Part shown: positions 10,298 to 10,885 of the stretch, in pieces | Layout of the letters: the number at the start of each line of letters is the position of its first letter | Numbering within the stretch: the stretch's first letter is position 1 | From: Escherichia coli | Lineage (GTDB): Bacteria; Pseudomonadota; Gammaproteobacteria; Enterobacterales; Enterobacteriaceae | Strand: one strand, 5' to 3' | DNA length: 64,000 nucleotides | Assembly: GCF_003790525.1 (NCBI RefSeq) | Contig: NZ_CP033635.1 | Translations under genes and position numbers: made by a program | The notes under the pieces: generated by a model | Database searches by the model: none | What the model saw: the letters and a program-made list of their open reading frames with translations, nothing else | What the model was told of the DNA's origin: nothing

Positions 10298-10782
10298 TTG
10301 TGACCATTAAACATTTATCAAAAATCTACTACTAGCATAGCAAAGCTACAATTAACATAACCTTAATAGCCCCAACATAAAAAATAATCTGAATAGCTGC
10401 TCTATTTATTTCCGCTTGTTTAAGTTAAATATTTCCGCACATCGATTAAAGATGATGCGTCGTTTTCTGCGATGGGAATAGTCAAAAAAGAAAAACCAAG
10501 TCTTTTTTGATGACAAAATGCAATCAAGGAAAAATTATTTTATTTTTTAACGAGATACAACAATCATCTTAACGAAGTATATAATATATATCGTCAACCC
10601 ATGCTCATATTAGATTATTTTTTGAGCGCATGGCCGCAGCTAACACCATTGCAATTAACAAATTTGCATCAATCCACCATCAATTTACACACATTATTAT
10701 GTGATATTTGCCAACCGCTAAATATGCGTTTTGTTATCTACGTATAAAAACAGCAACTTCAATGTCTTAATGGCAGTTTTTC

Positions 10783-10796
10783 TTGATTTTAATCAG
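10783..10796 (+). promoter_or_regulatory. Candidate FNR site upstream of dcuC
   Basis: TTGAT-TTTA-ATCAG matches the TTGAT-N4-ATCAA consensus at 9 of 10 positions, about 90 bp upstream of the dcuC start. Confidence 0.3.
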
Positions 10797-10885
10797 CATT
10801 CACCGCCAATTTATTGGGCATATTTTTTCCTTAGTTTTTAGGAATTTTTTATTATTTACTTTGGGGCCTGGAGACAGGAAAAATT

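Follow-up and report, generated by a model that had tools for sequence, protein, structure and literature searches.

The locus described here lies in a 64,000-nucleotide stretch of an Escherichia coli chromosome (contig NZ_CP033635.1 of assembly GCF_003790525.1), which we refer to as the window and number from its first nucleotide. The open reading frame (ORF) map of this part of the window reads, in order, cspE (minus strand), pagP (minus strand, 9737–10297), dcuC (plus strand, 10886–12271) and then dpiA and dpiB (minus strand). Together with the sequence, the map delimits an interval at 10298–10885, bounded by the ATG of pagP on the minus strand at 10297 and the ATG of dcuC at 10886. This 588-bp interval is the already characterised divergent promoter region common to dcuC and pagP. 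Through dcuC, FNR controls anaerobic succinate efflux; through pagP, PhoP controls lipid A palmitoylation.

The initial annotation had singled out the gap as unusually long and AT-rich, and both descriptions hold. At 31.3%, its GC content lies well below the 51.6% of the window as a whole, an AT-richness expected of H-NS-silenced DNA. By crude ORF calls the interval ranks second in length among the ORF-free gaps of the window. The sole longer one, at 56961–57746, carries hokE/sokE, Rfam placing a sok RNA at 57297–57452, and this leaves our interval as the longest stretch of the window that holds neither a gene nor a known RNA. In 50 kb of annotated K-12 sequence the dcuC–pagP gap, at 588 bp, is the longest between genes, the runner-up measuring 378 bp. 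The K-12 MG1655 counterpart (655,969–656,556) is also 588 bp long, is 97.4% identical by BLAST and bears no annotated feature; several E. coli chromosomes match the 588-bp interval at 100% identity, and of 5426 complete E. coli genomes, 5375 contain it. Published positions on U00096.2 (v2) were converted as window = 10886 − (v2 − 655,191), a conversion verified on the FNR site.

At the dcuC end, the FNR-like site TTGAT-N4-ATCAG proposed by the initial annotation was borne out. The FNR binding site, TTGATTTTAATCAG, occupies 10783–10796 on the plus strand, is centred at 10789.5 and agrees with the TTGAT-N4-ATCAA inverted repeat at 9 of 10 consensus positions, that is, with a single mismatch. One-mismatch sites occur six times in the window against an expectation of 2.6, and 7 of 100 shuffled sequences reach that number; the motif statistics alone are thus unremarkable, and the significance of the site comes from its position, its conservation and published ChIP. 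We fetched 80 enterobacterial pagP loci, in 43 of which dcuC is the divergent neighbour. An FNR-like site was kept in 42 of these 43 Enterobacteriaceae loci, with its centre 92–106 nt from the dcuC ATG, and GGYAYAT followed at most 40 nt downstream of the site in every one of the 42. In an alignment of 13 representatives, the block TTTATTnGGCAYAT downstream of the FNR site was nearly invariant. In published data, the FNR motif CTGATTAAAATCAA at 655,281 is listed as bound in ChIP, alongside FNR peaks at 655,298 and 655,340 (Myers et al. 2013, Table S6), occupancy of the dcuC site is seen as peaks in both ChIP-seq and ChIP-chip, and dcuC, whose anaerobic expression is 20-fold higher, is classed as directly FNR-activated (Myers et al. 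2013).

Inside the conserved TTTATTnGGCAYAT block lies CATATT (10819–10824, plus strand), the predicted −10 hexamer of dcuC, which implies a transcription start at about 10831–10834. A start near 10831 would centre the FNR site at −41.5, so that from the sequence both the start and a class II FNR geometry may be inferred for dcuC. The class II FNR-activated promoters of E. coli include a published dcuC promoter (Zientz et al. 1999, cited in Myers et al. 2013). A 454-sequencing 5′ end, by contrast, maps to −38 of dcuC, window position 10848 (Mendoza-Vargas et al. 2009), and a start there would place FNR at −58.5, which conflicts with the predicted class II geometry. The anaerobic sigma-70 ChIP-seq peak at 655,235, window position ~10842 and thus in the dcuC promoter (Myers et al. 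2013, Table S1), is compatible with either start, 10831 or 10848, and dcuC was scored as 'TSS not in peak region' (Myers et al. 2013). We tentatively prefer CATATT as the −10 element, because the hexamer proposed by Mendoza-Vargas et al. 2009, CTTAAGCT in K-12, varies within E. coli (at 10834–10836) and is not kept in other genera. Further downstream, the dcuC Shine–Dalgarno sequence (AGGA) and start codon span 10876–10888 on the plus strand, and GACAGGrrAA-N-ATG around the start was kept across genera in the alignment.

At the pagP end, the PhoP site is best placed, judging from its sequence, at 10352–10368 on the minus strand. The putative box, TATTAA-GGTTA-TGTTAA, agrees at 9 of 12 positions with the direct repeat (T/G)GTTTA-N5-(T/G)GTTTA that is expected of a PhoP site, and takes the place of a −35 element. 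Read from 10368 to 10352 it is TATTAAGGTTATGTTAA, the placement that matches the published E. coli crcA/pagP PhoP site, and it is followed in direct orientation, after 12 bp, by TATGCT: TGTTAA ends at 10352 and TATGCT starts at 10339. The hexamer forms part of an extended −10 element, TGcTATGCT (10334–10342, minus strand), whose TGnTA is conserved in the alignment and with which the Salmonella pagP −10, TATTAT (Zwir et al. 2012), aligns. From this arrangement we infer a pagP start at about 10328 and a 5′ untranslated region of about 31 nt. A sigma-70 ChIP-seq peak at 655,742 falls at window position ~10335, on the pagP −10 (Myers et al. 2013, Table S1). The initial annotation's expectation of two promoters in the interval is supported, with one divergent promoter at each end.

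Comparison with Salmonella fixes the position of the box. PhoP site and start lie 32 bp apart in E. coli crcA and 44 bp apart in Salmonella pagP (Harari et al. 2010), and the spacing from the centre of our box to the start agrees with the published 32 bp. The Salmonella pagP box, CTGTTTATAGTTTGTTAAG, stands 23 bp from its TATTAT −10 and has a hexamer in common with the E. coli box (Zwir et al. 2012). In the alignment the core hexamer T[G/A]TTAAG on the pagP strand was kept across genera, and E. albertii has TGTTAA-GGTTA-TGTTTA in the same place. Taken together, the alignment and the data of Harari et al. 2010 and Zwir et al. 2012 fix the E. coli box at 10352–10368 and its start near 10328, and they show that the box has shifted by one helical turn between E. 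coli and Salmonella while the central hexamer was retained. PhoP binding and PhoP-dependent transcription of E. coli crcA have been reported, as cited by Chalabaev et al. 2014 and Harari et al. 2010, and crcA (pagP) expression is 3.4-fold higher anaerobically (Myers et al. 2013).

The initial annotation had placed a PhoP-like half-site elsewhere, at about 10414–10436. The TGTTTA hexamer it relied on is present, at 10417–10422 on the plus strand, antisense to pagP, and as a PhoP site it fails on several counts. The window has 48 copies of TGTTTA, a chance-level number; the would-be partner, AATATT, matches at 2 of 6 positions, giving 8 of 12 for the full site at 10417–10433; the hexamer is not conserved, reading TGTTCA in K-12 and in five of eight E. 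coli alleles; and it lies ~90 bp upstream of the inferred pagP start, away from the published PhoP site and from the box at 10352–10368. The same end of the interval also holds an RpoN holoenzyme peak from genomic SELEX, at window position ~10317. We found no proper −24/−12 element by eye, and the one sequence considered for a sigma-54 promoter, TGGCAG-N6-TTGA at 10771–10786, is mis-spaced and 460 bp from the peak.

Conservation is confined to these two ends of the interval, as seen in the alignment of 13 representatives. Between them lies a lineage-specific AT-rich spacer (10400–10720, no strand) with a hypervariable core at about 10485–10640. Across the 43 loci pagP and dcuC are separated by anything from 275 to 1024 bp, and the central ~300 bp can be aligned in Escherichia alone, and poorly even there, unrelated DNA taking its place in other genera. 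We rejected the idea that the centre is a decayed gene or a mobile element: where other genera have longer intergenic regions, the ORFs in these show no homology to the E. coli centre, and the block with the FNR site and −10 is all that is shared.

Within E. coli, nucleotide diversity was calculated from eight alleles picked to span the range of identities, which inflates π. On this basis π was 0.02–0.03 at the two promoter-proximal ends, 0.0165 in dcuC, 0.024 in pagP and 0.144 at 10501–10600. Between K-12 and O157, identity is 81% over 10500–10640, compared with 99.7% in dcuC, 99.6% in pagP and 98–100% in the promoter blocks, and the most divergent of 1973 sliding 150-bp windows in a 50-kb comparison of K-12 with O157 Sakai falls in the spacer. 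Against a B2 strain, the spacer comes about seventh among the distinct regions of low identity, after other intergenic regions and ybdO/citR. Relative to the allele in the window, identity in the core is bimodal among 5376 genomes, with 3253 at 95% or above and 2052 at 80–90%. Such bimodal alleles, together with ~19% divergence between K-12 and O157 in the core next to 0.3–0.4% in the flanking genes, require that old alleles have recombined or that change has been accelerated locally.

The spacer is also bound by H-NS. ChIP-chip regions at 654,590–655,558 and 655,584–656,283 (Myers et al. 2013) convert to about 9794–11487 of the window, a span that runs from pagP through the entire interval into the 5′ part of dcuC (its first ~600 bp). 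Deletion of hns raises pagP expression 18-fold, and induction of pagP in biofilms needs SlyA (Chalabaev et al. 2014). The spacer is moreover flagged 'HNS' in genomic SELEX, an in vitro binding selection (Shimada et al. 2014). A scan of the window for the high-affinity H-NS motif returned 183 matches against 177 expected, indicating no enrichment, and a search for the SlyA consensus TTAGCAAGCTAA, allowing up to three mismatches, gave no match within the interval. In E. coli, faster evolution has been shown for regulatory intergenic regions that H-NS binds (Higashi et al. 2016), an observation that the hypervariable centre fits; ybdO, the worked example of that study, is located in the same window.

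The initial annotation had further suggested that the interval is long enough to hold an unannotated small RNA (sRNA) or small ORF, a suggestion that found no support. For an RNA, one hint of an additional transcript does exist, and only one: Ssr31, a 295-nt sRNA predicted in Shigella flexneri 2a 301 on the pagP strand of the same pagP–dcuC gap, at 693,980–694,274 of that genome, and positive by RT-PCR (Wang et al. 2016). The spacer might accordingly be an independent sRNA gene on the pagP strand, the E. coli counterpart of Ssr31, with its own promoter and terminator. The length of the interval would suffice for it, and sigma-70 holoenzyme binds the spacer in vitro, where two central promoter-like sequences have been proposed, ATGACA-17-AATTAT at 10510–10538 on the plus strand and TTAAGA-17-TAAAAA from 10573 to 10545 on the minus strand (Shimada et al. 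2014), the latter in the orientation that Ssr31 would need. Ssr31 is, however, one of 57 computational S. flexneri predictions and comes without Northern blot or RACE (Wang et al. 2016), and RT-PCR alone is no proof of a discrete RNA.

Searches of the sequence did not reveal such a gene. No annotation lies under the interval in 5381 E. coli genomes, among the records listed. At the Rfam gathering score, five families were recovered elsewhere in the window, including sok, the rnk leader and cspA, which served as positive controls, and none in the interval; a permissive search of 9200–11200 (E ≤ 10) gave noise alone within the interval, with no match better than E = 3. No tRNA or tmRNA genes were found, and a scan of both strands detected no terminator-like element in 10298–10885 and a single promoter-like match, so that no pair of promoter and terminator bounding a discrete transcript was found in the interval. 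On the minus strand, where Ssr31 would lie, folding z-scores in sliding windows ran from −2.0 to +2.8. The sole outlier fold was on the plus strand at 10430–10529, with z = −3.2 against 100 shuffles and −2.6 against 200, which is marginal over 56 tests; across its 30 pairs the eight alleles showed zero compensatory changes and several disruptions. Neither a conserved structure nor a described RNA family was detected in the interval, and its centre is hypervariable in sequence. Repeats within it are short AT-rich matches only, and a 10-bp AT hairpin at 10482–10510 was set aside on finding it broken by non-compensatory changes in other alleles.

In vivo data point the same way. In anaerobic sigma-70 ChIP-seq (one medium; Myers et al. 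2013), the interval has two peaks among those listed, both located at its ends, the next peak being that of the cspE promoter; none of the listed peaks is central. The alternative foreseen by the initial annotation, that only the two expected promoters map here, is therefore nearly what sigma-70 ChIP finds, in one growth condition and by ChIP rather than start-site mapping. Among the Term-seq entries of Adams et al. 2021 that the analysis covered, which map RNA 3′ ends, none is for pagP or dcuC. The hypervariability of the centre within E. coli, and its absence from other genera, is a strong argument against a conserved RNA or peptide there. Given all of this, we regard an independent sRNA gene as very unlikely.

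The promoter-like sequences of the spacer lend themselves to a different explanation of the Shigella signal. Cryptic promoters in the spacer, suppressed by H-NS and either weak or firing on H-NS titration, could yield non-functional pervasive transcripts and in this way be the source of the positive RT-PCR for Ssr31. The DNA is AT-rich, the one strict sigma-70-like match of the interval is central, and holoenzyme binding and the H-NS flag in genomic SELEX coincide on the same spacer, which H-NS also covers by ChIP. That single match nevertheless compares with 3.9 expected in shuffled sequence, the hexamers that were proposed differ from one E. coli allele to another, and the anaerobic sigma-70 peaks listed include none in the centre. 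Such transcripts, which would be compatible with the explanation that we favour below, are a realistic possibility, if on balance an unlikely one.

A small protein gene fares worst of all. The interval contains 18 ORFs of at least 10 codons, the longest encoding 48 amino acids at 10601–10747, so that an overlooked gene for a protein of 10–50 amino acids might have been hidden among them. Most of these ORFs begin with TTG, though, and a 4-nt Shine–Dalgarno match precedes only one, a 10-codon ORF spanning the FNR site. The 48-amino-acid ORF has lost its start codon or frame in three of the eight E. coli alleles, and a 24-amino-acid ORF with an ATG start has done so in seven of eight. ORFs intact in all eight alleles sit in the promoter-proximal blocks, whose conservation has other causes. 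Outside these conserved blocks, none of the 18 is at once intact, preceded by a Shine–Dalgarno sequence and begun by ATG or GTG, and no product resembles a hydrophobic type I toxin. We consider a small protein gene in the spacer extremely unlikely.

We therefore favour the explanation that the interval consists of two end-anchored promoters and an H-NS-bound spacer, with no sRNA or small protein gene, and assign it a probability of roughly 85%. It draws on the sites and the conservation described above, on the published occupancy by FNR, sigma-70 and H-NS, and on the published effects of hns and slyA on pagP. At the dcuC end, FNR at 10783–10796 would recruit RNA polymerase to the adjacent weak −10 and so turn dcuC on anaerobically, in fermentation; with its centre ~41.5 bp upstream of the inferred start at ~10831, FNR would act in class II fashion, overlapping the −35 position. 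At the other end, PhoP at 10352–10368 would stand in for the −35 element of a sigma-70 pagP promoter and make it responsive to PhoQ/PhoP signals. The FNR and PhoP steps rest on conservation here together with published binding and expression data. Between the two, the spacer may serve as a silencing platform: H-NS polymerised over its ~450 bp, over pagP and over the first ~600 bp of dcuC would keep pagP repressed until the repression is lifted by anti-silencers such as SlyA, or by activators, and would probably also mask promoter-like sequences within the spacer. A spacer of this kind would be constrained in composition alone and would turn over rapidly. Needing only AT-richness, the centre would be free to change, and it is indeed hypervariable in E. 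coli and replaced from genus to genus.

It is conceivable, if improbable, that the diversity of the core has a function of its own, the segment at 10485–10640 diversifying to tune the control of pagP, and possibly dcuC, by H-NS and SlyA according to E. coli lineage, or yielding lineage-specific transcripts like the Ssr31 signal. Were core alleles to alter pagP expression, this could be relevant to how strains differ in remodelling the outer membrane and in resisting antimicrobial peptides.

The interval illustrates that a pair of end-anchored promoters, plus an AT-rich spacer coated by H-NS, can explain in full a long gap between bacterial genes. As no hidden gene is needed to account for this gap, length alone is a poor predictor of hidden genes. 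Our analysis also corrects the picture of the interval in two respects: the PhoP box belongs at 10352–10368 and not at 10414–10436, and the centre is among the most variable segments of its chromosomal neighbourhood, in keeping with published work on H-NS-bound DNA.

Each part of the interval resembles a known system. The dcuC promoter is like the class II FNR promoters of E. coli, in which the site lies near −41.5: it has a 9/10 site with a −10-like hexamer at the expected distance, and published FNR occupancy, FNR-dependent expression and anaerobic induction. It departs from the TTGAT-N4-ATCAA consensus in its 3′ half-site, which is ATCAG rather than ATCAA in almost all Enterobacteriaceae examined, and the 454-sequencing 5′ end would set FNR at −58.5 instead. 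The pagP promoter is like PhoP-activated promoters, namely those of the E. coli Mg2+ stimulon and Salmonella pagP (architecture IV of Zwir et al. 2012), in having a hexamer direct repeat with 11-bp phasing upstream of the −10. Salmonella pagP, the orthologous gene, also has the T[G/A]TTAAG hexamer, whereas the E. coli box is one turn nearer the −10 (12 versus 23 bp, or 32 versus 43–44 bp from the start) and, at 9/12, a weaker match; for the further box that footprinting revealed upstream in Salmonella, no E. coli counterpart has been demonstrated. Ssr31 is assigned to the same intergenic region and strand as our spacer but is known from prediction and RT-PCR, with unmapped ends, and no sequence feature supporting it was found in the allele in the window. 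The genes flanking the interval are core genes, unlike recent horizontal acquisitions, and its diversity is concentrated in a core of ~150 bp, where local π, inflated by the choice of eight alleles that span the identity range, is ~0.14, far above the published median of 0.017 for such regions (Higashi et al. 2016). As a whole, the interval is like the H-NS-bound regulatory intergenic regions of Higashi et al. 2016 in its low GC content, its ChIP coverage and its raised within-species diversity, and, with pagP derepressed 18-fold when hns is mutated and dependent on SlyA, it behaves like H-NS-silenced regions.

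The AT-rich, H-NS-bound spacer between dcuC and pagP contains a hypervariable core (10485–10640) that we identified by comparing alleles. K-12 and O157 are approximately 81% identical in this core, with the flanking genes at more than 99.5%, and the lowest-identity 150-bp sliding window of the 1,973 spanning 50 kb of the K-12 versus Sakai comparison lies within it. Among 5,376 genomes the core alleles were bimodal, with identities of at least 95% in 3,253 and of 80–90% in 2,052. This variability agrees with earlier findings that regulatory regions bound by H-NS evolve faster; the divergence may have arisen from old alleles that recombine or from local acceleration.

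The locus is also disrupted occasionally, as the full-length interval is missing from around 50 of 5,426 genomes; one genome, MINF_8D, matches just 150 of the interval's 588 bp. In E. coli SMS-3-5 (locus L002, 2797–3776), an IS5-like element of the ISKpn26 family interrupts pagP, yet the intergenic allele is identical to that of the window. Several other genera (loci L050, L051, L059 and L034) have a dcuC–pagP gap of 700–1,000 bp containing unrelated, higher-GC DNA, which makes the spacer a recurrent insertion site. Inspection by eye of the Kosakonia oryziphila gap (L050, 1977–3000) revealed apparent fragments of an RND-type transporter gene.

Closer to pagP, two exact copies of the 9-bp direct repeat TATTTCCGC (10407–10415 and 10430–10438, 23 bp apart) lie on either side of the plus-strand TGTTTA (10417–10422) that the initial annotation had proposed as a PhoP-like half-site. 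Neither copy changes across eight E. coli alleles, and adjacent positions are variable. The repeat was not found outside E. coli, and we recognized no match between it and a known binding site.

At the other end of the interval, a 14-nt inverted repeat (10818–10831 and 10876–10889; 13 of 14 positions complementary) pairs the −10/start region of dcuC with its Shine–Dalgarno sequence and AUG. The predicted pairing would occlude translation only in transcripts begun upstream of the FNR promoter. Outside Escherichia this repeat is not conserved, and folding of the dcuC 5′ UTR, taken as starting at 10831, was no better than that of shuffled sequences. Elsewhere in the window, an Rfam search placed the cspE gene and leader (9305–9753, minus strand) in the cspA thermoregulator family (136 bits against a gathering score of 78). 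Matches at the gathering score to the sok antitoxin RNA of hokE/sokE (57297–57452, minus strand), the rnk leader (22732–22840), STnc70 (26603–26696) and ES036 (54963–55004), all unrelated to the dcuC–pagP interval, served as positive controls.

Sigma-70 occupancy at the pagP promoter (around 10335) is approximately 10-fold higher anaerobically (37 versus 366), and crcA (pagP) mRNA rises 3.4-fold (Myers 2013, Tables S2 and S12). Three phased hexamers, TATGTT-GGGGC-TATTAA-GGTTA-TGTTAA, occupy 10352–10379 on the minus strand, and the proximal two probably constitute the E. coli PhoP box. This pair also resembles an ArcA-type direct repeat, which is characterized by TGTTAA with 11-bp phasing. Upstream of dcuC/crcA, Park et al. 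(2013) reported a strong ArcA motif that lacked ChIP binding. In Salmonella, by contrast, the pagP PhoP box corresponds to the equivalents of the distal two hexamers, indicating that the box has slid by one helical turn.
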